The notes beneath the pieces were generated by a model that saw only the letters and a list, made by a program, of their open reading frames with translations, was not told the origin of the DNA and made no database searches. From an uncultured Pseudobdellovibrionaceae bacterium (GTDB taxonomy: Bacteria > Pseudomonadota > Alphaproteobacteria > Micavibrionales > Micavibrionaceae), in contig CAZBGS010000001.1 of NCBI GenBank assembly GCA_964491785.1, positions 232,661-296,660 on the forward strand: a stretch of DNA of 64,000 nt. Direction: 5' to 3'. Position numbers and translations under genes: made by a program. Positions 1,673 to 63,139 of the stretch are shown here, piece by piece (the first letter of the stretch is position 1; every line of letters begins with the position of its first letter).

Positions 1673-3067
1673 TCAGTGAACCGGGGCGGCGAAGAAATCG
1701 AAGAAAACCCACATGACCACCGAGGATACCGCCAATGTGAGAATCATAGCAGGGGTTCCTTTTCTGATCCAGAGGCCCGGAGTAATTGCCAGATCAGGGT
1801 TCTTTTCGTTCTTGGCCAGACGCTCGGATATGGTGACGATAAAGACGTTCGCCGTCGACCCCAAATGAGAGCCGTTACCGCCCATGCCCACGCCAATTGC
1901 GAGCGACCACCATAGCGGGGCGACGTTGATTCCCTGCGTTTCCATGCTCAGGATGATCGGGATCATCGCCGCGGTGAACGGGATGTTGTCGATCAGAGCG
2001 GAAAGCACTGCCGCCACCCACATCAGCAGGATGCATGAAAGCAGCAGATCCTGCTCGACGAAAGGCTGAAGATGGGCGCCCAGCCACATCAAGAACTGGC
2101 TATGTTCCACTCCGCCGACGAGAACGAACAGCGAGATGAAGAAAAGCAGTAGCGACAGTTCCACCTGCTCGAGATAGGTGTCGAGAACCAGCTTGTGCGA
2201 GATGACTACCAGAGAGGTCAGTCCAAGAACAGCGACGACCCATGCTTCCCAATGCAACGCTCCGTGGAAAATAAACAGGAGCACCATGCATCCGAGTACT
2301 GCCAGCGCCGTATACCATGTGAATTTGTCCTGGAGTTCCACACTGTCAGCAAACTTCAATTCGGCAGTTTTAACCGAAAGTTCTTTTTTGAAGAGGATTT
2401 TCAGTCCGAAAAGTATTGCTATCCAGGCGCAAAAGACGATTCCGCCCATGCGCAGGAAGAAAGTATTGAAGTCGATCCCGGCCGCCGAGCCGATCATAAG
2501 GTTCGGCGGATCGCCAACGAGAGTCGCCACGCCGCCGGTATCAGACAGGAGCGCCGCCGCCAGAAGATAAGGGATCGGGGAAACGCGCAGCACCTGACAG
2601 ATCAGGATGATCAGCGGGCCGAAGATAACCACAGTTGTGACGTTATCGAGAAGCAGGGAAATAACGGTTACCGCCGTTCCCATAAGCACCATCAGTGGAA
2701 ACTGCTTTCCCTTGCTAACCCTTGCTATCCAGTAGGCAAGAGCCTGAAAACCGCCGGTGGGAACCATTATCGAAACGATCGCCATCATGGCTCCGAGCAG
2801 GAAAACGACGTTCCAGTCAATGGCTTCAATCGCCAGTTCCGGATTATAAAAGCCGAAGATCTGACCGGTAATCACCATTACGGCAGCGCCAAGCATTGCC
2901 ACCTTGGTACGGTGAATATGGTGAACGCCTTCTGTAAAAATCGCGGCGAAGGTAACGGCAAGAATTATCGCCGAAACTATCATCGGGGTGTCCATAATCA
3001 TCTCTGTCAGACCATGCGACGCAGTATCTAGCCCCGCTGCTGCGTGCTGGGTATCTATGTGGTTCAT
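1673..3067 (-). CDS. ArsB/NhaD-superfamily (SLC13-like) anion permease, copy A
   Basis: The 464-aa protein is polytopic and carries the GDPPNLMIGSA signature of the ArsB/NhaD/CitMHS permease superfamily. It is about 85% identical to the ORF at 3744..5126. Confidence 0.7.
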   Translation of the reverse strand: MNHIDTQHAAAGLDTASHGLTEMIMDTPMIVSAIILAVTFAAIFTEGVHHIHRTKVAMLGAAVMVITGQIFGFYNPELAIEAIDWNVVFLLGAMMAIVSIMVPTGGFQALAYWIARVSKGKQFPLMVLMGTAVTVISLLLDNVTTVVIFGPLIILICQVLRVSPIPYLLAAALLSDTGGVATLVGDPPNLMIGSAAGIDFNTFFLRMGGIVFCAWIAILFGLKILFKKELSVKTAELKFADSVELQDKFTWYTALAVLGCMVLLFIFHGALHWEAWVVAVLGLTSLVVISHKLVLDTYLEQVELSLLLFFISLFVLVGGVEHSQFLMWLGAHLQPFVEQDLLLSCILLMWVAAVLSALIDNIPFTAAMIPIILSMETQGINVAPLWWSLAIGVGMGGNGSHLGSTANVFIVTISERLAKNEKNPDLAITPGLWIRKGTPAMILTLAVSSVVMWVFFDFFAAPVH

Positions 3068-3085
3068 TGCATTCGCCTCTGGGAT

Positions 3086-3583
3086 TTAATTATTCAAGTT
3101 TTTTTCTTCTTCGGCAGCCATATCAAGGAGAGCCTTGACTATCGACTGGGAGGAGATTATTCCGGCCATTTTCCTGTTTTCCTGGGATTCGACGACCGCC
3201 AGCGGGGAGTCGTATTTCACCAGCAGTCTGACACCTTCCCAAAGTGGCGTCTCGGGGGTCACAAGACGGAGATCCTTTACCGGTTCCATCACCTCTCCCA
3301 CCTTGACAAGCAACAGCTTGCGCAGTCGTTTGGCTATTCCAGGAGCGGCCCCGACCAGGTAGTCGAGCCTCAAGTCAAGGTTGACGCCATGGTCAACCGT
3401 GACATTTACAGGCAGCAGATTTTGCAAAATGTTCCGTAAGTGGAAAACACCGACGATCTCGTCATTCTCAACTACAGGAACGCCTCTGATATTGTACTCG
3501 TTGAACATAGCGAGCACATCGCCAATGGTCTTATCAGGATCAACCGAAATTACTTTCGTGATCATTGCTCTTTTACAAGGCAT
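3086..3583 (-). CDS. CBS-pair (Bateman domain) protein, copy A
   Basis: The 165-aa protein has two CBS motifs (residues ~6-57 and ~95-153). It lies 18 bp upstream of permease copy A and is about 75% identical to the ORF at 5147..5638. Confidence 0.7.
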   Translation of the reverse strand: MPCKRAMITKVISVDPDKTIGDVLAMFNEYNIRGVPVVENDEIVGVFHLRNILQNLLPVNVTVDHGVNLDLRLDYLVGAAPGIAKRLRKLLLVKVGEVMEPVKDLRLVTPETPLWEGVRLLVKYDSPLAVVESQENRKMAGIISSQSIVKALLDMAAEEEKNLNN

Positions 3584-3743
3584 TTCCCAACCTCTATTAT
3601 CAATGTCTTTACAATTCGGTGGGAACTATGCTCTCGATAATTCAGTTTTTCAACCGAAAACGGACAAAGAATTTCCAAAAACCGCCTTCCCGATACCAAG
3701 GAAAGCGGTTTGCTTAATGATTTCAGTTTATTGCACTGGCGGC

Positions 3744-5126
3744 CTAATGGATCGGAGAGGCAAAAAAGTCGAAAAAGACCCACATGATCAATGACGCCAC
3801 GACGAGCGTTAAAAGCATTGCCGGAGTACCTTTCCTTAACCACAATCCCGGAGTGATCGCCAGATCCGGGTTCATCTCGTTTTTGGCAAGGCGCTCGGAA
3901 ATGGTAACTATGAACACATTGGCGGTTGAACCGATATGCGAGCCGTTACCGCCAAGGCCTACGCCTACCGCCAGCGACCACCAAAGCGGGGTGACGTTGA
4001 TGCCCTGAGCTTCCATGCTCAGGATTATCGGGATCATCGCCGCCGTGAAAGGTATATTGTCAATCAATGCCGACAGCACAGCAGCCACCCACATCAGCAC
4101 AATTGCCGCCATCAACAGGTCGCTTTCGACAAAGGGCCTGATGTGCTGTCCGATCCACATCAGGAACTGGCTGTGCTCCACTCCACCGACAAGTACGAAC
4201 AGCGATACGAAAAATACCAGCAGCGATAGCTCCACTTTTTCAAGGTAATGGTCGAGAACCAGCTTGCGTGAGATTATCACCAGCGCCGTCAGGCCAAGAA
4301 CCGCAACGACCCATGCTTCCCACTCAAGCGCCCTGTGGAAGATAAACAGCAGCACCATACAGGCAAGGATGGCAATAGCGGCAAACCAGGTGAAGGGATC
4401 CTGAAGCTGGACGTCTTCAGCGAATTCCATCTTTTCGGATTTTCCAGACAGTTCTTTTCTGAACAAGACTTTCAAACCAACTATTATCGATAACCAGGCG
4501 CAAAAAACGATCCCGCCCATACGCAGGAAGAAGGTGTTGAAATCGATGTCCGCCGCCGAGCCGATCATCAGGTTTGGCGGGTCGCCGACCAGGGTCGCAA
4601 CGCCGCCGGTATCGGACAGCAGGGCAGCCGCCAGCAGGCTAGGTATCGGGGATATTTTAAGAACCTGACAGATCAATATTATCAGCGGCCCGAAAATGAC
4701 GACCGTCGTCACGTTGTCAAGCAGCAGGGAGAAAACCGTAACGGCCGTACCCATCATGATCATCAGCGCAAGATGGTTCCCCCGGCTCAAGCGCGCTATC
4801 AGGTACGCCACGGCCTGGAAACCTCCGGTGGGTATCATGATGGAAACGATCGCCATCATCGCTCCAAGAAGAAATACCACGTTCCAGTCTATCGCCTCGA
4901 TTGCCAGTTCGGGACTGTAAAAACCGAAAATCTGGCCGCTAATCACCATCATGCCGGCGCCGACCATTGCAACCTTGGTACGATGCATATGGTGCACGCC
5001 TTCGGTAAAGATCGCAGCAAAGGTGAATACCAGTACCAATGCCGACACTATCATTGGAGTATTCATAACTAGTTCCGCAACTCCATCATGAGACACCATC
5101 GCTATTTCGCCATGTGCATTACTCAT
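3744..5126 (-). CDS. ArsB/NhaD-superfamily (SLC13-like) anion permease, copy B
   Basis: The 460-aa paralogue of 1673..3067 shares the GDPPNLMIGSA motif and is collinear along its whole length. Confidence 0.7.
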   Translation of the reverse strand: MSNAHGEIAMVSHDGVAELVMNTPMIVSALVLVFTFAAIFTEGVHHMHRTKVAMVGAGMMVISGQIFGFYSPELAIEAIDWNVVFLLGAMMAIVSIMIPTGGFQAVAYLIARLSRGNHLALMIMMGTAVTVFSLLLDNVTTVVIFGPLIILICQVLKISPIPSLLAAALLSDTGGVATLVGDPPNLMIGSAADIDFNTFFLRMGGIVFCAWLSIIVGLKVLFRKELSGKSEKMEFAEDVQLQDPFTWFAAIAILACMVLLFIFHRALEWEAWVVAVLGLTALVIISRKLVLDHYLEKVELSLLVFFVSLFVLVGGVEHSQFLMWIGQHIRPFVESDLLMAAIVLMWVAAVLSALIDNIPFTAAMIPIILSMEAQGINVTPLWWSLAVGVGLGGNGSHIGSTANVFIVTISERLAKNEMNPDLAITPGLWLRKGTPAMLLTLVVASLIMWVFFDFFASPIH

Positions 5127-5146
5127 TTTTCCGTTTCCTTAAGTTA

Positions 5147-5638
5147 TTATTTCTCGTCGGCCATTTCGAGGAGGGCCTTTACGATGGACTGGGAAGTGAT
5201 GATCCCGGCCAGTTTCGTTCCATGAAGATCCTCTACCACCGCAAGTGGCGTATCGTATTTAACCAGCAGCCTTACGCCCTCCCATAATGGAGTTTCAGGA
5301 GTAACGAACCTTAAGTCCTCGGCCGATTCCATTACGTCGCGAACCTTTACCAGAAGCAGCTTGCGCAGCCTTTTGGCGACATCGGGTTCGACATCGACCA
5401 GATAGTCAAGGCGCAGATCGAGGTTAACACCGCGATCTACGTTGACGTTGACCGGCAACAGATTCTGGAGAAGATTCCGCAGGTGGAAAACGCCCAGTAT
5501 ATTGCCGTTTTCCATTACAGGGACTCCCCTTATTCCATATTCATTGAAGATTTTCAGCGCATCTTCGATTGTCTGTTCTGCCCGGACTGAGATCACATTT
5601 GTGATCATCGCTCTTCTGCATGGCATACTAAACCTCAT
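5147..5638 (-). CDS. CBS-pair (Bateman domain) protein, copy B
   Basis: The 163-aa paralogue of 3086..3583 heads the duplicated module. Confidence 0.7.
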   Translation of the reverse strand: MRFSMPCRRAMITNVISVRAEQTIEDALKIFNEYGIRGVPVMENGNILGVFHLRNLLQNLLPVNVNVDRGVNLDLRLDYLVDVEPDVAKRLRKLLLVKVRDVMESAEDLRFVTPETPLWEGVRLLVKYDTPLAVVEDLHGTKLAGIITSQSIVKALLEMADEK

Positions 5639-8699: not shown

Positions 8700-8724
8700 C
8701 TTCCCTCCCGCCGGGAGAGGGAAG
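8700..8724. repeat. Short copy of the dispersed GGGAGAGGG palindromic repeat, between convergent genes (likely bidirectional terminator)
   Basis: The sequence cttccctcccgccgggagagggaag is an inverted repeat sitting between the M23 peptidase stop and the HAD hydrolase stop. Confidence 0.5.
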
Positions 8725-9848: not shown

Positions 9849-12800
9849 TTACGAACCCGTTTTTATACTTTCTCTGGCCATTTTCGGCTCGCGGCCAGCT
9901 GCGGTGCACAGGAAGCAGTAGAGCTTGCCCACCTCGCTGGAAACGAAGGTCGAGGAAAGCAACGCGCCGTGGTCGTTGGCGATGGCCTGGTCGTACAGTT
10001 CCTCGAACTGACGCAGATAGCGCTGGACGTAAGTGCGGAATTCGGTGTCGGAGGCGAATTTCTTGCGAACCTTGTCGACCGGCATATTATCGCCAAGCTG
10101 GGCCAGACGGCGGGTAAAGGCGGATACATCGCCTTTCTGGAACGCTCGCCAGGTCTTCTCGGGAACCTCGCCGTCGAGATTGCGGGTAAGGTCGACCGAG
10201 AGCGAATGCAGGCTTTCGACAATGAATTTTGCCGAAGACAGGAAGGATTCCCGCTGCACCCTCGATTCCTCTTTCCGGATTTCCTCGGCATGCTGCCTTG
10301 CGTCTTCGGAAGCTTTGAAAAGAGAGGTTGACTGGCGGTGGAAAGCGGAAGTGGCCTGTTCCGTCGTTTCGATTGCCTTGGTCGACACGAGGATAAGACG
10401 ATCCGTCTCCTTGTCGAGTTTTTCCCGCGCGCCGTCGATTCTGACGGAGACATCGCCAGCGGTCTTGCCGACTTCGTCGAGCCTTGAGGTAAGAACAGAA
10501 ACCGCCTTGCCGATGGTGTCCGCGGAATCAGCCGAGGCCTGGGCGACGGCAGAGGCCTGATCCTTCAACTCCTTGCCGTAGTTCTGGCTTATCTGGAGCG
10601 AGGCTTTCATTTGCTCGGCTATTTCCCTCGACCTAACAGCAAAAGTATCGCCGGCCTTTTTCAGTTCGATCAGGGTTTCACTCGACTTGTCGAACAAGGC
10701 TTCAGCCTCGTTCTGAATGCGGGTGACGAGAAGGCTCGTCGATTCCACTGTATTTTGCGAGGCATCGTTGAGTTTTTCGCTATGGCGCAGTGCCTTGTCA
10801 CCGATCTCGTCGAATTTTGAGGCTATGCGTTCCGCAGTCTCGTCGACGCTTTCGGCGGACTTGCTGAATTCGGTGCCGGCGGCCTGAAGCTGAACCATGG
10901 CCTGGCCGATGGAAGCGGAAAGCTCGTGGAACTGGTCGTTGATGGCCTTCTGGATATTCTCGATTTTGAGCAGAGCCTGATCGGTCACCAGATGGATATC
11001 CGAAGACTGGTTGTCCAGAGAGGCTTCGATTTCCCGCATCTTCTCGCTGGCGGAACGGGCGGCGTCCTCGATCTCGCCCACGCGCTCCTGCAGGTGGTCG
11101 CTGGAAGATTTGAGGATCTGGGAGGCCTGCGACGATCCTTCCTTGAGGTCTTGCAAGCGTTCATCAAAGATGGAGCCGATGTGATCAAGCCTTGCAAGGC
11201 TGCTTTCGGCGGTGTCGCTGAATTCGCCGCGGAGTTTTTCGAAGCGTTCGGTCGCGGTTCCGGCGCGTTCGATAGCTTTTGTATAGACCGGCTCAATTTC
11301 GACCGCCGCGCTTTCAAGCGAACGGGTTACCGCGGTGATCGACGTTTCGGCCGCCGAGCAGCCTGATTTGAGAGTTACAATGCGGTCTTCAAGCGAAGCG
11401 TCAAGCTTTTCCAGTTTCTCCAGAGCTGTCGTGCTGACGTTGCCGATTTCGTCGCAACGCGAGGCGATAGTACCTTCAAGTCTGGCGATCTGCGATACCG
11501 CGTTTCCGGAGAGCCTGTTAAGGTTTTCGGCCTGGATTTCAAGAGCGCTGCGGACTGCCTCGATCTGGACAAGCGAATCCTTGACCTGAAGAGAAAGAGT
11601 ATCCTTCTGTTCGCTCATGTTGTTGTTGATCGCCCTGGCGTGGGCGGCGATCTGACCGGATAGGGTCGAGATCTCCTGCGCCTGGCCTCTTAGAATGGTG
11701 CGGATATGCTCGGCGCTTCCGGTGGCTTTTTCGCTGGCCTCGTTGAGGTCGGAGACGCGGCGGCGCAAGGTGTCCTCAATCTCTTCATGCTTGCCGTCGG
11801 CTTCGCTGACCGCAAGCATCATCGCCTTCAGTGGCTCTTCAAGGGCGGTGCGTACAGTTTCGATCCGGTCGGCAAGGCTTGCGGTGGAGACGCTGATTTT
11901 TTCAGCCTGCTCATCGACGGCGGAAGAAAGTTTGGCGACCTGGACATCGGTAAGTTTCGAGGCTTCCTCGATCTGGTCGCGGCTGCGTTCAAGCAGTTCG
12001 ACGATCGATTTGATATGTTCGACATTGCCCTCGCCGGAAGCGTTGAGTTCATCAATGTGCTTGCGGGCAGTCTGGATCAGTTCTTCGGCCTGCGTACGGG
12101 CGGACTGGGTGGACTTTTCGAGGCTATCGACGGCGCGCCGGACAGCGGAGCTTACTGTTTCCGCCCCTGACAGCGCGACGGAAAGCGCTTCGGTCAGCCT
12201 GTTGGAGACCGCTATTCCGGCTTCTTCAATTCCGCCTGCTTCTTTAGTTAGTATTTTTACTGTTTCTCGCAGCTTGTCGGCTTCCCCGCTGACACGGCCG
12301 GTTACGTCATCGGCCTGACCTGCGGCATAATCTGCCGCTTCCTTAAGTCTGTTTACGCTGGAGCTGACGGCATGCGCGATGTTCTCGGCCTGAACCGCGA
12401 CGGCCCTTGCACCCTGATCCAGCGCCTCGCGCTGATCCTGAATGGTTTCGCTGGAGCGCAGCATGGCTTCGACAACCTTGTCTGTCATATCCTCAAGACT
12501 GCTGACCTGATCATGAATTTGTTCGCCGATGCGGGAAGTTTCTTCGGCGACATGGTCGGTGGCTTCGGTGAGGCCTCTGGTATGTTCGTCAAACTCGCCG
12601 CTCAGTCCTTTAAGGCGTTCGGCGATCTTTTCGACGGCTTCATTGAGGTTTTCGTAGGTCTTCTGCAGGTCTGCCTCTATTCCGCCGATCTTGTCGCGGG
12701 CGGTGTCGGCGGCGGCCAGGATCTTGTCCGCTCCCTTGCAGAGAGAGTTTTCCATCTCTCCGGAGCGCTCAAGGACAGTTCTGGTGACCTCATCCCAGAC

Positions 12801-13664
12801 CTGGACGCCCTTTTCCGTGCTTTCGGCGATTTTCGAAGTTCTGGCCTCGATTTCCGAAGTGAGCGCTATCAGGCTGGCGGCGCGGGTTTGCAGGGTTTCG
12901 GCAAGTCGGTCGATATGGAATTCGGTCTTTTTCGATATGCCAACGAAATCCCGTATTTCGGCGCGCAGCCCCAGTCTTGCCCGGTGAATGGACTTCAGAA
13001 CCGCCTTGGAGCTTGCCGAGAGTTCGGCGGCCTGACGGCACAATAGTTCGATATCGCGGCTTATTATCCGCGAGCGCTCTTCCGAAGGGAAAATCAGGGA
13101 GTGCAGTTCCTTGCGCAATGATTCAGCGTACATGTGTACGTCCGACGTACGCTGGATATGTGAAAGCACCAGCCAGAAAAGCGCAGGAGGAGCCAGCATA
13201 CCGGCAATATAGCCGCCAAGCTCGTCCGGCTTGAGAGACAAAAGATCTCCAGAACGGAAAGCATAGAAAACACAATAGCTTACCCAGGCGATTGTAAGTA
13301 AAAGTCCAAAAGCCTGGCCGTATCTGTGGCTGGCGGGACGCTCAAGCAAAGGAGTGTTCATCGGGGCCAGCATAAGAACCGGTTCGGCGTCGGCTTCATC
13401 GGGATCCAGCTGATCTGGCCGGGTTGCGCGCAGTTCCTCGGTTGTTTTGTCTTCCGATGAAGTAATTCTTAGAGTTTTAAGCCCTGATGCCGTGTTAATC
13501 CTGAAACTTGTCTTGTTGTCACGGGTTTCCGGAAGCTGCGGCAAGCGGACGGATGTTCTGCTTTTTGTTTCTTCCGCGCCGGTCTCCGTGTGGGAAGAAT
13601 CGTCGGCGCCAGTATCCCCACCTGCCTGCCTTGCGGCTGACACTTTCTTCATTTGCAGCTCCAT
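9849..13664 (-). CDS. Large membrane-anchored coiled-coil protein (1271 aa), TipN-like architecture
   Basis: After a ~100-aa charged N-terminal region there are two hydrophobic segments (LLLTIAWVSYCVFYAF and IAGMLAPPALFWLVL). About 1000 aa of E/A/R/K/L-rich heptad-like sequence follows, ending in a distinct ~150-aa C-terminal domain. Confidence 0.6.
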   Translation of the reverse strand: MELQMKKVSAARQAGGDTGADDSSHTETGAEETKSRTSVRLPQLPETRDNKTSFRINTASGLKTLRITSSEDKTTEELRATRPDQLDPDEADAEPVLMLAPMNTPLLERPASHRYGQAFGLLLTIAWVSYCVFYAFRSGDLLSLKPDELGGYIAGMLAPPALFWLVLSHIQRTSDVHMYAESLRKELHSLIFPSEERSRIISRDIELLCRQAAELSASSKAVLKSIHRARLGLRAEIRDFVGISKKTEFHIDRLAETLQTRAASLIALTSEIEARTSKIAESTEKGVQVWDEVTRTVLERSGEMENSLCKGADKILAAADTARDKIGGIEADLQKTYENLNEAVEKIAERLKGLSGEFDEHTRGLTEATDHVAEETSRIGEQIHDQVSSLEDMTDKVVEAMLRSSETIQDQREALDQGARAVAVQAENIAHAVSSSVNRLKEAADYAAGQADDVTGRVSGEADKLRETVKILTKEAGGIEEAGIAVSNRLTEALSVALSGAETVSSAVRRAVDSLEKSTQSARTQAEELIQTARKHIDELNASGEGNVEHIKSIVELLERSRDQIEEASKLTDVQVAKLSSAVDEQAEKISVSTASLADRIETVRTALEEPLKAMMLAVSEADGKHEEIEDTLRRRVSDLNEASEKATGSAEHIRTILRGQAQEISTLSGQIAAHARAINNNMSEQKDTLSLQVKDSLVQIEAVRSALEIQAENLNRLSGNAVSQIARLEGTIASRCDEIGNVSTTALEKLEKLDASLEDRIVTLKSGCSAAETSITAVTRSLESAAVEIEPVYTKAIERAGTATERFEKLRGEFSDTAESSLARLDHIGSIFDERLQDLKEGSSQASQILKSSSDHLQERVGEIEDAARSASEKMREIEASLDNQSSDIHLVTDQALLKIENIQKAINDQFHELSASIGQAMVQLQAAGTEFSKSAESVDETAERIASKFDEIGDKALRHSEKLNDASQNTVESTSLLVTRIQNEAEALFDKSSETLIELKKAGDTFAVRSREIAEQMKASLQISQNYGKELKDQASAVAQASADSADTIGKAVSVLTSRLDEVGKTAGDVSVRIDGAREKLDKETDRLILVSTKAIETTEQATSAFHRQSTSLFKASEDARQHAEEIRKEESRVQRESFLSSAKFIVESLHSLSVDLTRNLDGEVPEKTWRAFQKGDVSAFTRRLAQLGDNMPVDKVRKKFASDTEFRTYVQRYLRQFEELYDQAIANDHGALLSSTFVSSEVGKLYCFLCTAAGREPKMARESIKTGS

Positions 13665-13923
13665 CGCTAGATTTTCTCGGAAGTAAGACTGATTTATAAA
13701 TGCATATCAGTCATTTGCAATGCATACTGAATGCAGTTTTATAATTAGTTGTGGATAAAAGGATCAGGTCTTTGCGGTACTTTACAAAGACTTTTTGTTA
13801 CCAGGTGCTTGCGGGTATATTTTAAGATTGCGCTTGAACGCCTGCCCGCCTATAGCATGAAGATTGACTGAAACGGTTCAGTTTAACAGATCGATGCTTC
13901 AGGCAACAGGGTAAGGCGTTTTG

Positions 13924-13990
13924 CGGACGAGTGCCCTCACCCTCCCGCTTCGCGTGCCCATCCCTCTCCCGGCGGGAGAGGGGGATTGGT
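13924..13990 (+). repeat. Dispersed intergenic repeat, full-length copy (two-hairpin element)
   Basis: The sequence ggacgagtgccctcaccctcccgcttcgcgtgcccatccctctcccggcgggagaggggg contains hairpin 1 (cccgcttcgcg) and hairpin 2 (ccctctcccggcgggagaggg). It sits just 3' of the 14001..14489 gene. Confidence 0.6.
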
Positions 13991-14000
13991 GCCGGATATT

Positions 14001-14489
14001 TTATTGGCCGCAGATGGGTTGGGATACGGGGTGGCCTGGAAAGATAGTCGAGGCCCATTTCCGGATCTCCTGCTGGTTCATTACCGATACCTGGGAAATG
14101 CGGGGCGAGTAGCGTTTGCAAAAAAGATCGGGCCGCATTTTCGCTGCGTCGTTGGAGATCTTGTTGGCGAAGGCGGTGCGCATCAGGTTCAGAGATGCTA
14201 CCGGATTTGGATGGCCGCATTTGCGGAAGTAGTTGATCAGGGTTTCCTCATAGCCGACGATCAGGTCGGAATACCTGCTGGAAAAATTCCGGTACTGGGA
14301 ATAAAGGTTTTCCTGTCCGCTTGGAGTCATGTGCTGGCAATTCAGGCCGATGACCATCAACTCGCTGTGAATGCGGATCCCCTGCTCCGCCTCGGCTTCA
14401 TTAAGAGAATAACAACTGCGGATTTCCTCTGCGGCATTAGCGGTTCCAGAAAAGGCCATTAAAAGAAACAAGATCAGTACTTTACGCAT
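14001..14489 (-). CDS. Secreted cysteine-containing hypothetical protein
   Basis: The 162-aa protein has a signal peptide (MRKVLILFLLMAFSGTANA) and six Cys residues. The family is not recognised. Confidence 0.45.
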   Translation of the reverse strand: MRKVLILFLLMAFSGTANAAEEIRSCYSLNEAEAEQGIRIHSELMVIGLNCQHMTPSGQENLYSQYRNFSSRYSDLIVGYEETLINYFRKCGHPNPVASLNLMRTAFANKISNDAAKMRPDLFCKRYSPRISQVSVMNQQEIRKWASTIFPGHPVSQPICGQ

Positions 14490-23623: not shown

Positions 23624-23731
23624 CGTATTTCTAACATTCTCGTATCAGTCATGTCCGCGACGCGCCGGAAGGCGCGCTGATCTGCGGGTATCCGAAAAAA
23701 GCGTGCGGCGCGGGAGAGGGATTTTATCAGG

Positions 23732-30115: not shown

Positions 30116-30188
30116 ACCCCTCACCCGGCTACAGCTAATCTCTCTTCGAGGGATAAGCTTGCGCATCCCTCTCCCGCAGGGAGAGAGA
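30116..30188 (+). repeat. Dispersed intergenic repeat, divergent copy (rbfA-truB spacer)
   Basis: The sequence cccctcacccggct...catccctctcccgcagggagagag shares the CCCTCACCC head and the CCCTCTCCCnnnGGGAGAG hairpin with the other copies. Confidence 0.45.
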
Positions 30189-45329: not shown

Positions 45330-45402
45330 GCCTGAATATCAGGCCTGACCAGTTTCCAACGGCGTTGCGGGATACCGCTGCGCCGTTTGTTTTTGTGTGA
45401 TG

Positions 45403-45466
45403 CACCTCCGAAGTCCCCTTACCCTTCCGCTTTGCGGCCCCCTCGCTCTCCCGGCGGGAGATAGGC
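45403..45466 (+). repeat. Dispersed intergenic repeat copy (after cassette, before suf regulator)
   Basis: The sequence tccgaagtccccttacccttccgctttgcggccccctcgctctcccggcgggagatagg is collinear with the copies at 13924 and 62002. Confidence 0.55.
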
Positions 45467-61922: not shown

Positions 61923-62001
61923 TATAATTTTTGCATTCAGTTTCGCCGCTTCGCGCCACGAAGATCACGGAGCAACCTGTTTCAACGGATTCCCGCACGA
62001 G

Positions 62002-62078
62002 GCGGACGACGCTCCGAAACTCCCTCACCCTCCCGCTTCGCGGGCCCCGCCCTCTCCCAGTGGGAGAGGGGTTTGTGG
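62002..62078 (+). repeat. Dispersed intergenic repeat, full-length copy (between convergent regA and cobD)
   Basis: The sequence gcggacgacgctccgaaactccctcaccctcccgcttcgcgggccccgccctctcccagtgggagaggggtttgtgg is the best-preserved consensus copy. Confidence 0.6.
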
Positions 62079-62083
62079 ATGAT

Positions 62084-63139
62084 TCAACTTATCATCAGTA
62101 TCAGGGCGGCGAGCAGGAGGGTTGCCGAGATTATCAGGAGATAGAGGGAACGCTTGACGTGGGAAGCGTCCAGTCTGGCGCTGGCGCCTTCGGGGCCGAT
62201 CCAGGCTTTCTTTCTGGCAAAGCCGTCCATGCCTGTCACCGGGCCGCCCAACGAAATATCAAGGCCCCACGCGGCACAGGTCAGGTTCTTGCCGCCTTCG
62301 GCGTATGGCGCCGCGTTTTCTTTGGCGAACCACCCTTTAAAAGTTTTGAAAACTGAAACGGTCGGCGAAAAAGCCGAGGCGAGAGTTAGCAGAACTGCCG
62401 AAAGAATATTGGCGATAAAGCCGGTGGCGGCCTCCAGCAGCAATACAGGCTTGCCGAACGCCTTGCCGTACCCCTCCCTTCCCAGATGCCATGCGCTTGC
62501 CGCGATGGCGGCGTAGGCGAAAGCGAGAGGCAAGCCGCCGATCAGATACCAGAAAACCGGAGCTACCAACGCCATGGGCAGCATGCGAACCGCGTAGCCT
62601 ATGGCGACTCTCGTCAGGCCGAAATCGTCGCTGGCCGAGAGATCAAGGCCGGAAGAGCGGGCAATCGTGTAATATACTCCGGATTTGCGCTTGTTTTTCT
62701 TCAAAGCTTCGTACAGCTGCCAAGCGGCACGCCATATCGAACCGCTGGAAAGGCAGAGCGAGAGAAATAAAATTTCTAGAAGATCATAATGAGGGAATTT
62801 CCAGACAATGTGCAGCGCCAGACTTCCCATGCCCAGACCGAAAAACAGCGCAAGCGCCGCAAAGGCAAGCCCCCTCAGGAACAACTCTTTTCCCGAGCGC
62901 TGGCGGCGGTCGAGGCGGCGGCCCAGTATGCCAAGGGTGCTGTCGACAAGAAGCCATACGGGCGGCCCGGCATATCCCCGCAAAGGCGCGGCGGCCAGAC
63001 CGGCTATCGAAACCGCAGCCAGCGACGTTATGGCAAGCGGCAATCTGTCAAATATCGCTATTTCAGGGATGACCTCGATCATAAAGCGGATTATAGCTGA
63101 CAGGATGACTAAATGCATCCGCTTGTGATAAACAACCAA
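62084..63139 (-). CDS. cobD: Adenosylcobinamide-phosphate synthase CobD/CbiB
   Basis: This is a polytopic membrane protein. The CobD family conserved C-terminal half (SAVLLTLASAF...TCAAWGLDISLGGP) is recognised. Confidence 0.7.
   Translation of the reverse strand: MVVYHKRMHLVILSAIIRFMIEVIPEIAIFDRLPLAITSLAAVSIAGLAAAPLRGYAGPPVWLLVDSTLGILGRRLDRRQRSGKELFLRGLAFAALALFFGLGMGSLALHIVWKFPHYDLLEILFLSLCLSSGSIWRAAWQLYEALKKNKRKSGVYYTIARSSGLDLSASDDFGLTRVAIGYAVRMLPMALVAPVFWYLIGGLPLAFAYAAIAASAWHLGREGYGKAFGKPVLLLEAATGFIANILSAVLLTLASAFSPTVSVFKTFKGWFAKENAAPYAEGGKNLTCAAWGLDISLGGPVTGMDGFARKKAWIGPEGASARLDASHVKRSLYLLIISATLLLAALILMIS

Follow-up and report, generated by a model that had tools for sequence, protein, structure and literature searches.

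The 64,000-nt stretch analysed here (hereafter the window), positions 232,661 to 296,660 of contig CAZBGS010000001.1 in GenBank assembly GCA_964491785.1, comes from an uncultured alphaproteobacterium placed in the Micavibrionaceae. Its GC content is about 52% and its genes include an ActR/PrrA regulator, sufB, and adjoining rbfA and truB. Dispersed in its spacers is a short repeat built of two hairpins, which our analyses assign to a known group of bacterial repeats: in the evolutionary sense it is a member of the BoxC / PIT / TM_ECO family, a variant with a hairpin in its linker, and not a new element. Knowledge of BoxC, PIT (potential intrastrand triplex) or triplex-motif repeats goes back to the 1990s, and their function and means of spread remain a long-standing question.

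Repeat copies in the window

An earlier note on this DNA had reported at least five copies of the repeat, and all five sites (copies A to E below) do carry the sequences that it gave. The terminal palindrome, hairpin 2 (CCCTCTCCC-NNN-GGGAGAGGG, with up to 2 mismatches), has 3 matches in the window and the 5′ half of the unit (CCCTCACCCTCCCGCTTCGCGGG, with up to 3 mismatches) has 2, against 0.00 expected in either case from 100 shuffles. Repeat clustering of the window groups 13934-13983 (copy B), 45416-45465 (copy D) and 62022-62071 (copy E) at 82-90% identity, and 30139-30188 (copy C) enters the cluster at 60% identity only. A hidden Markov model (HMM) trained on 98 copies taken from other genomes recovers copies E (E = 1e-14), B (3e-12) and D (2e-7) over their full length, and copies C (E = 0.012) and A (0.05) through hairpin 2 alone; nothing else in the window matched it. 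The window thus holds three clear copies (E, B and D), one structural variant (C) and one remnant (A), so that the earlier count stands for the three homologous copies and the variant, A being only a terminal hairpin. Their parts and settings, with gene context taken from public gene calls plus protein family scans, are the following.

62002-62071, plus strand: copy E, the best-preserved, between the convergent actR (stop 61922) and cobD-like (stop 62084) genes
62002-62021, plus strand: lineage-specific 5′ tail of copy E, GCGGACGACGCTCCGAAACT, shared in part with copies B and D
62022-62030, plus strand: C-block 1 of copy E, CCCTCACCC, equal to the third block GGGTGAGGG on the G-rich strand
62031-62049, plus strand: 19-nt linker of copy E, TCCCGCTTCGCGGGCCCCG, which holds hairpin 1
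62032-62044: hairpin 1 of copy E, reading CCCGCGAAGCGGG on the G-rich strand and including the mini-hairpin GCGAAGC (from folds and covariation)
62050-62070, plus strand: hairpin 2 of copy E, CCCTCTCCC-AGT-GGGAGAGGG (C-block 2, loop, G-block)
13923-13983, plus strand: copy B, separated by 18 nt from the stop of the 162-aa gene at 14001-14489 and lying upstream of a ~1270-aa gene, both genes on the minus strand; truncated tail at 13923-13933, C-block 1 at 13934-13942
13943-13961, plus strand: linker of copy B, its hairpin 1 weakened (GCGTG replaces GCGGG)
13962-13982, plus strand: hairpin 2 of copy B
45405-45465, plus strand: copy D, degenerate; the spacer that holds it is 456 nt long and has a terminator-like hairpin (45366-45382) ahead of the copy; tail fragment CCTCCGAAGTC, C-block 1 CCCTTACCC at 45416-45424
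45427-45437, plus strand: hairpin 1 of copy D, CCGCTTTGCGG
45444-45464, plus strand: hairpin 2 of copy D, CGCTCTCCC-GGC-GGGAGATAG
30117-30187, plus strand: copy C, the longer-linker variant, between rbfA and truB; C-block 1 CCCCTCACCC at 30117-30126
30133-30159, plus strand: middle hairpin of copy C, 27 nt, with the same TTC loop as the other copies
30167-30187, plus strand: hairpin 2 of copy C, CCCTCTCCC-GCA-GGGAGAGAG
8700-8724, strand unassigned: copy A, a solo, slightly defective hairpin CTTCCCTCCC-GCC-GGGAGAGGGAAG followed by TTTTATT, between convergent M23 peptidase and HAD hydrolase genes

Both hairpins of copy E are predicted to fold as described on either strand; in copy B a G-to-T change leaves hairpin 1 with 3 predicted pairs, and the two-hairpin fold described earlier therefore holds for E but only in weakened form for B. 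Copy C is a true family member, with the same architecture and a different, longer middle hairpin. Copy A is plausibly the collapsed remnant of a full unit, since solo hairpins take the place of full elements at orthologous loci in Azospirillum (see below). The tail GCGGACGACGCTCCGAAACT belonged to the earlier consensus and is indeed present in E and partly in B and D, but it occurs in 0 of 121 copies from other genomes and is thus specific to the window's lineage; we rejected it as a part of the conserved element, and a metagenome scan with it mostly matched an unrelated conserved gene.

The settings of the copies are more varied than had been proposed. Two copies and not three lie between convergent genes (A and E), B being flanked by two minus-strand genes and C by rbfA and truB, and the statement that every copy sits immediately 3′ of a gene fails for D, which is 290 nt past the upstream gene and ~100 nt before an Rrf2 regulator gene. 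The open reading frame (ORF) at 61931-62356, taken to be a spurious product of copy E, has no Pfam match and is uncalled in the public record, consistent with that view. A possible decayed sixth copy, TCCGAAAAAAGCGTGCGGCGCGGGAGAGGGATTTTAT, lies at 23684-23721 between convergent genes; it has the TCCGAA tail motif, a copy-B-like GCGTGC stretch and a lone GGGAGAGGG block whose C-block partner is absent, and the profile search missed it.

A hairpin-linker form of the BoxC family

The TM_ECO motif of Escherichia coli, earlier named BoxC and PIT, reads CCCTCNCCC N3-6 GGGNGAGGG N3 GGGNGAGGG, and the second loop of all 23 units in strain K-12 is 3 nt long, of the TTA or CCG type (Holder et al. 2015, PMC4666352). 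The motif was later found again as a hairpin/G-quadruplex motif, for which a switch was proposed (Kaplan et al. 2016, PMC5100583). On its G-rich strand, the core of the window repeat is CCCTCTCCC-N3-GGGAGAGGG-(19-nt linker)-GGGTGAGGG, with the mini-hairpin CCCGCGAAGCGGG in the linker; copy E reads CCCTCTCCC-ACT-GGGAGAGGG-CGGGGCCCGCGAAGCGGGA-GGGTGAGGG. These are the 9-nt blocks of the BoxC/PIT/TM_ECO family (CCCTCNCCC, GGGNGAGGG, GGGTGAGGG) in the same order, exact in copies B and E and with 1-2 mismatches per block in D (CGCTCTCCC, GGGAGATAG, GGGTAAGGG); the G-block of copy C is GGGAGAGAG, and copy A keeps the first two blocks only. The first loop is also the same, 3 nt in all five copies (AGT, GGC, GGC, GCA and GCC) and hence within the 3-6 nt of TM_ECO. 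The second loop, which contains a hairpin, measures 19 nt in B, D and E and 40 nt in C; the 3-nt second loop of TM_ECO is thus lacking and membership by the strict pattern fails, which counts against the assignment. We nevertheless place the repeat in the family because its block plan matches the published pattern except in this loop, and because the two forms interchange at Azospirillum loci.

All three orthologous Azospirillum loci that we compared, a small sample without control loci, are polymorphic for the element. Locus 1 is the spacer between a beta-propeller gene and an ABC ATPase gene, where three strains have a lone hairpin, CCCTCTCCCC-NNN-GGGGAGAGGG, and three others have inverted pairs of ~150 nt; some halves of these pairs carry the linker TTA or CTAA (the canonical E. 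coli type A), the other halves the mini-hairpin linkers GGCCCGAAGGGCC, GGCCGCGAAGCGGCC, CCCGCCTTCGGCGGG or GGCCCTGCGGGCC. Judged by the flanks, the short form equals the long form minus everything between its two palindromic hairpins, which are direct repeats of each other. At locus 2, A. brasilense MTCC4039 has a clean indel of ~172 nt (L126:1088-1259) with a 145-nt inverted-pair element, at a site uninterrupted in MTCC4038 (L133); MTCC4038 and Az39 carry the element elsewhere in the same spacer. TA is present at both junctions of this insert, a possible 2-nt target duplication in a single case. At locus 3, directly after the stop codon of a TonB-dependent receptor gene, five strains (L242, L243, L244, L245, L246) show four states: empty in A. 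lipoferum and A. ramasamyi, a lone hairpin in TSH58, a canonical three-block TTA unit in MTCC4038 and a full inverted pair with hairpin linkers in MTCC4035. That nothing, a lone hairpin, a canonical unit and a hairpin-linker unit alternate at the same loci indicates one fast-changing family. Over all fetched loci, linkers of 6 nt or less occur at 101 of 291 G-block junctions, so that canonical and hairpin-linker units coexist.

The linker hairpin itself is structurally conserved. Covariation, counted for hairpin 1 only on a MAFFT alignment of 94 copies, shows both sides changed in 11 cells, where shuffles give 1.1 and none of 500 reaches the observed value; the sample is partly pattern-selected, which makes the test conservative as to variation, and the test is not free of relatedness among the copies. 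Slid registers of the same alignment pair far worse than the true one. The compensatory stem variants replace CCCGC/GCGGG by CCCAC/GTGGG, CCCAT/ATGGG, CCCAAGGC/GCCTTGGG or GGCGC/GCGCC. Of the perfect linker hairpins, 38 are distinct; on the G-rich strand their loop is of the GNA type in 25 and of the GNNA type in 4, with C·G as the closing pair in nearly all of these, and the heptamer GCGAAGC is exact in the G-strand linker of copies B and E. Sequences of the type d(GCGNAGC) and d(GCGNNAGC) form extraordinarily stable DNA mini-hairpins (melting temperature, Tm, ~76 C) that are much weaker as RNA, as found by Hirao and colleagues, and their natural examples are single-strand priming or replication sites and phage N4 hairpin promoters (review PMC13037366). 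Since GNA loops are stable as DNA and much weaker as RNA, the loop chemistry points to G-rich single-stranded DNA as the probable relevant form. A nearest-neighbour model, which does not capture the stability of the mini-hairpin, rates both strands equal.

The earlier note had suggested that the element be sought in related genera, and it is present in many alphaproteobacterial lineages. Using one genome per species and the exact 21-nt pattern CCCTYACCCTYCCGCTTYGCG, we retrieved at least 119 stretches, nearly all alphaproteobacterial, with a few in bins assigned to other phyla. The matches listed include Sphingomonas/Allosphingosinicella (Sphingomonadales), Inquilinus, Stellaceae, Pelagibius, Kiloniellaceae, Ferrovibrio, Aliidongia, Magnetospirillum, Caulobacter and many metagenome-assembled genomes. 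On the 3′ side of the search pattern, in a part that it does not impose, most copies continue as GG(Y)CCCTCCCTCTCCC-loop-GGGAGAGGG, and 15 of 115 have a fourth block, GGGTGAGGG, which creates a long hairpin from which the mini-hairpin branches off. The linker-bearing 52-nt consensus occurs at 133 places on 35 Azospirillum replicons (listed as plasmids in PLSDB), nearly all without an annotated feature beneath, and has no match among 5,426 E. coli genomes. Many alphaproteobacterial lineages thus carry a structured, covarying linker form that the published pattern misses. We did not find this form described in the literature, which is no proof of its being undescribed.

Several lineages show arrangements of their own. 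In one alphaproteobacterial genome (L065:515-650, L112:7324-7450, L100:4597-4700, L003:2299-2400) the 5′ module, made of the C-block, the linker hairpin and ~13 nt, forms head-to-tail arrays of 2-3 repeats (period 36 nt) that precede one hairpin 2; the number varies by locus, as in a minisatellite. One Desulfobacteraceae bin (L026, L034, L074, L082, L087, L095, L110, L115) has a different multi-copy repeat that reuses the module CCCTCACCCTCCCGCTTTGCGGGA, flanked by a pair of unrelated hairpins (CCATTTGAA...TTCAAATGG and TTGACGGACT...AGTCCGTCAA); the block-plus-mini-hairpin module has apparently been shuffled into other repeat families outside the Alphaproteobacteria. In Sphingomonadales (L010, L019, L030, L043, L052, L067, L069, L083 and others) an inverted block 1 with the start of the linker (GGGAGGTGAGGGC) lies ~22 nt upstream, giving an additional long hairpin and a lineage-specific mosaic. 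Finally, metagenome contigs of 44-52% GC from diverse environments (L145, L146, L158, L183, L204 and others) contain four-block units with very short linkers and TCCGAA-type inverted flanks, from which it follows that the family reaches well beyond GC-rich Alphaproteobacteria.

Placement and mode of action

To place the copies of other genomes (n = 147) relative to genes we used crude gene calls, that is, open frames filtered by codon-position GC. Convergent spacers hold 31 copies and divergent ones 13; 77 copies lie in tandem spacers, 42 with the G-rich and 35 with the C-rich strand in the mRNA sense; 6 are inside genes and 20 are unclassifiable. About 121 of the 127 classifiable copies are therefore intergenic, as are all window copies. 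Measured to the upstream stop codon, the median distance is 67 nt, about a quarter of the copies lying within 20 nt. A classification by longest ORF, which put 80 of 147 copies "inside" genes, was discarded because that result came from long spurious ORFs, which arise in GC-rich DNA. The common orientation reported for the window holds for its four orientable copies (B, C, D and E; p = 0.125), all on the strand of positive GC skew, but 142 copies elsewhere show no bias relative to GC skew (69 vs 73); a replication-strand bias is accordingly rejected and the agreement in the window best read as chance. Placement is thus REP-like (repetitive extragenic palindromic): intergenic, under-represented in promoter-bearing spacers and free in orientation.

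In our view the element is probably a structured repeat, self-propagating or tolerated, whose action is at the level of DNA, and not a host RNA signal; we put the probability of this at roughly 0.6. On the G-rich strand, the unit consists of the C-block CCCTCTCCC, a 3-nt loop, the G-block GGGAGAGGG, the C(GNA)G mini-hairpin and the second G-block GGGTGAGGG. When single-stranded during replication, repair or transcription, this strand may fold into hairpin 2 plus the very stable mini-hairpin, or alternatively into a triplex or a G-quadruplex. Such folds would favour slippage or template switching, by which inverted pairs may be built and then collapsed to lone hairpins like copy A. Copies would survive mainly by gene 3′ ends, where insertions might do little harm. 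The clean insertion at Azospirillum locus 2, with its possible TA duplication, hints at an active process.

Several points weigh against this interpretation. The DNA-level view rests on the loop chemistry and the absent orientation bias. In E. coli cells, no stable triplex was seen to form (PMC4666352). Ascertainment by pattern inflates the apparent conservation of the 5′ half among the copies of other genomes. The turnover data come from Azospirillum and not from the window's own lineage, for which close relatives are lacking; two window proteins that we looked up stand alone in clusters drawn at 90% identity, and ActR shares 77% identity with its nearest relative. Lastly, hairpin 2 of copies A, B and E lies 3-19 nt from a stop codon, and convergent spacers exceed divergent ones by 31 to 13, both of which would also fit a role at RNA 3′ ends.

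Such a role, with hairpin 2 serving as a terminator or as a 3′ stem-loop that shields the upstream mRNA from exonucleases, is the alternative that survives best, and we consider it unlikely. Some REP elements do protect upstream mRNA as 3′ stem-loops; hairpin 2 is a strong palindrome with the same fold in either transcript orientation, and identical palindromes in Enterobacter sp. 638 were presumed to act in termination (PMC2869309). However, the terminator function attributed to the repeat earlier is not borne out, and we reject its identity as an intrinsic terminator: a consensus scan reported 0 of 5 window copies, a T-run after the stem is seen by eye in copy A alone among them, and elsewhere one follows hairpin 2 in 9 of 115 copies. 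Copy D lies past a separate terminator-like hairpin, just upstream of a gene, and copy C within the rbfA-truB pair. An RNA role also sits poorly with the free orientation to flanking genes (42 vs 35), and it leaves unexplained the conserved extra blocks and the DNA-favoured GNA loops of the linker. In E. coli, PIT relatives had neither promoter nor terminator activity in tests, at least as Maher's work is cited in Holder et al. 2015 (PMC4666352). As for the hairpin before copy D, it is a conventional one with a T-run (AACGGCG...CGCCGTTTGTTTTTG, 45364-45398), so that termination of the upstream gene needs no copy D.

Rather improbable is a classical miniature inverted-repeat transposable element (MITE), an element derived from an insertion sequence but not autonomous, which has terminal inverted repeats, is moved by cut-and-paste or copy-and-paste through a transposase encoded elsewhere, and leaves target-site duplications. 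The presence/absence polymorphism in Azospirillum, including the clean insert possibly flanked by TA...TA, would agree with it, as would the 145-nt Azospirillum unit, which has long inverted ends and is dispersed at up to 92.6% identity, and the window unit, whose ends are nearly inverted (CCCTCACCC agrees with the complement of GGGAGAGGG at 8 of 9 positions). Yet no target-site duplication is visible around copies B, D and E or at Azospirillum loci 1 and 3, the window copies are single units of 50-70 nt, shorter than typical MITEs, and much of the variation, as at locus 1, is better explained by deletion between two palindromic hairpins. We know of no insertion sequence with such ends, and none turned up in the window or the fetched loci, where no systematic search was made. 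Plasmids and phages as vehicles were also rejected: the "plasmid" matches are large Azospirillum replicons, save one partial Mitsuaria match, 4 of 2.9 million viral contigs match, and phage records hold a partial match of at most 23 nt. Likewise, no association of TM_ECO with transposons, phages or plasmids was found by Holder et al. (PMC4666352).

Least probable of all is a host-serving signal in non-B DNA or for protein binding (a triplex, a G-quadruplex/hairpin switch, or a site for nucleoid or replication proteins) that regulates neighbours or chromosome processes, which would suit the conservation of the 9-nt blocks across distant bacteria, the stable triplex formed in vitro by the isolated E. 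coli sequence (PMC4666352), the proposed switch (PMC5100583), the hairpin 2 plus quadruplex from flanking G-runs that the G strand of copies B and E is predicted to prefer with the G-quadruplex term on, and the single-strand priming sites and phage N4 promoters marked by similar mini-hairpins (PMC13037366), but does not agree with copies gained and lost between close strains, unlike a required signal, with neighbour genes that share no function here or in E. coli (PMC4666352), with the lack of bias to replication direction, or with a triplex footprint not seen in vivo in E. coli (PMC4666352).

A much more speculative proposal, to which we give little credence, is that BoxC-type repeats form a multi-class family of targets for a conserved enzyme, which would recognise them in the form of folded single-stranded DNA, the C(GNA)G mini-hairpin marking the active G-rich strand. 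Candidates for such an enzyme would be a primase-like or single-strand-initiation activity, or a transposase of the HUH/Y1 type as for REP/RAYT. If true, this recognition would account for how the repeats reach new sites and for why the 9-nt blocks are so extremely conserved, and the alphaproteobacterial hairpin-linker form would be the version that displays the recognition structure most explicitly. To a specialist, BoxC-type repeats in Alphaproteobacteria will come as no surprise; the GNA mini-hairpin and the Azospirillum allelic series provide handles on an unsolved problem, and the latter, as a series at single loci, could show how such repeats arise and decay. For annotation, knowledge of the family averts the calling of spurious ORFs, 61931-62356 being an example, and the labelling of terminators without grounds.

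Two features of the window lie outside the repeat family. At 1673-5638, two adjacent minus-strand gene pairs (464 aa + 165 aa and 460 aa + 163 aa, offset by 2,071 nt) resemble a tandem duplication, with a 300-nt stretch 77% identical. The minus-strand protein of ~1270 aa at 9849-13664, next to copy B on its downstream side, could be assigned to no family and gives only weak sub-threshold matches to coiled-coil/repeat families, e.g. SMC and ZorA.

Comparison with known systems

A gathering-threshold Rfam search of the window returned two tRNAs only; Rfam families were rejected for the element, permissive searches with it and with the Azospirillum composite giving far sub-threshold chance matches, mostly to microRNA hairpins. 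The REP/BIME- or MITE-like behaviour proposed earlier holds to a large extent, the repeat being dispersed, structured and intergenic, but its identity is BoxC / PIT / TM_ECO and not REP/BIME. Like REP/BIME elements of enterobacteria and pseudomonads, these are short, GC-rich, imperfect palindromes, present in many copies per genome, extragenic, often by gene 3′ ends, and assembled in mosaics. REP/RAYT systems have a conserved GTAG-type head by the imperfect palindrome, recognised by a RAYT transposase. By inspection, no GTAG-type head flanks the palindromes in the window or in the copies of other genomes, and none of the flanking genes scanned within the 64 kb is a transposase. The composition of the blocks also differs, and the window has no alternating clusters. 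REP/BIME identity is therefore rejected, the block plan being of the BoxC type.

Bacterial MITEs such as Correia/NEMIS of Neisseria, ERIC/IRU and the Rickettsia palindromic elements are likewise non-coding, dispersed, self-complementary and polymorphic between strains, and the 145-nt Azospirillum composite resembles them in its long inverted ends. In contrast with them, the window units are of 50-70 nt, consistent target-site duplications are absent, and the core recurs across many families and orders, as is seldom the case with MITEs. The d(GCGNAGC) mini-hairpins, exact in copies B and E and kept elsewhere as C(GNA)G or C(GNNA)G variants, are a structural motif and not a repeat family, and the priming and promoter role belongs to the natural examples of that motif.

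In Enterobacter sp. 638, ~100 palindromes CCCTCTCCC-XX(X)-GGGAGAGGG, often at gene 3′ ends, were presumed to be terminators (Taghavi et al. 2010, PMC2869309). They are identical to hairpin 2 and were described without the extra block or the linker hairpin. The closest system remains BoxC/PIT/TM_ECO itself, which shares with the window element, besides blocks and first loop, an intergenic position without an orientation rule and, as seen in Azospirillum, inverted pairs and strain-to-strain instability. The window copies differ from it in being single units with a lineage-specific 5′ tail, and in a second loop of ~19 nt (40 nt in copy C) that is itself a conserved, covarying mini-hairpin with GNA loops. 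Hairpin-linker units of this kind fall outside both the published TM_ECO pattern and the 1-6-nt loop limit of the ITxF search; since both would miss them, the family is broader than catalogued.

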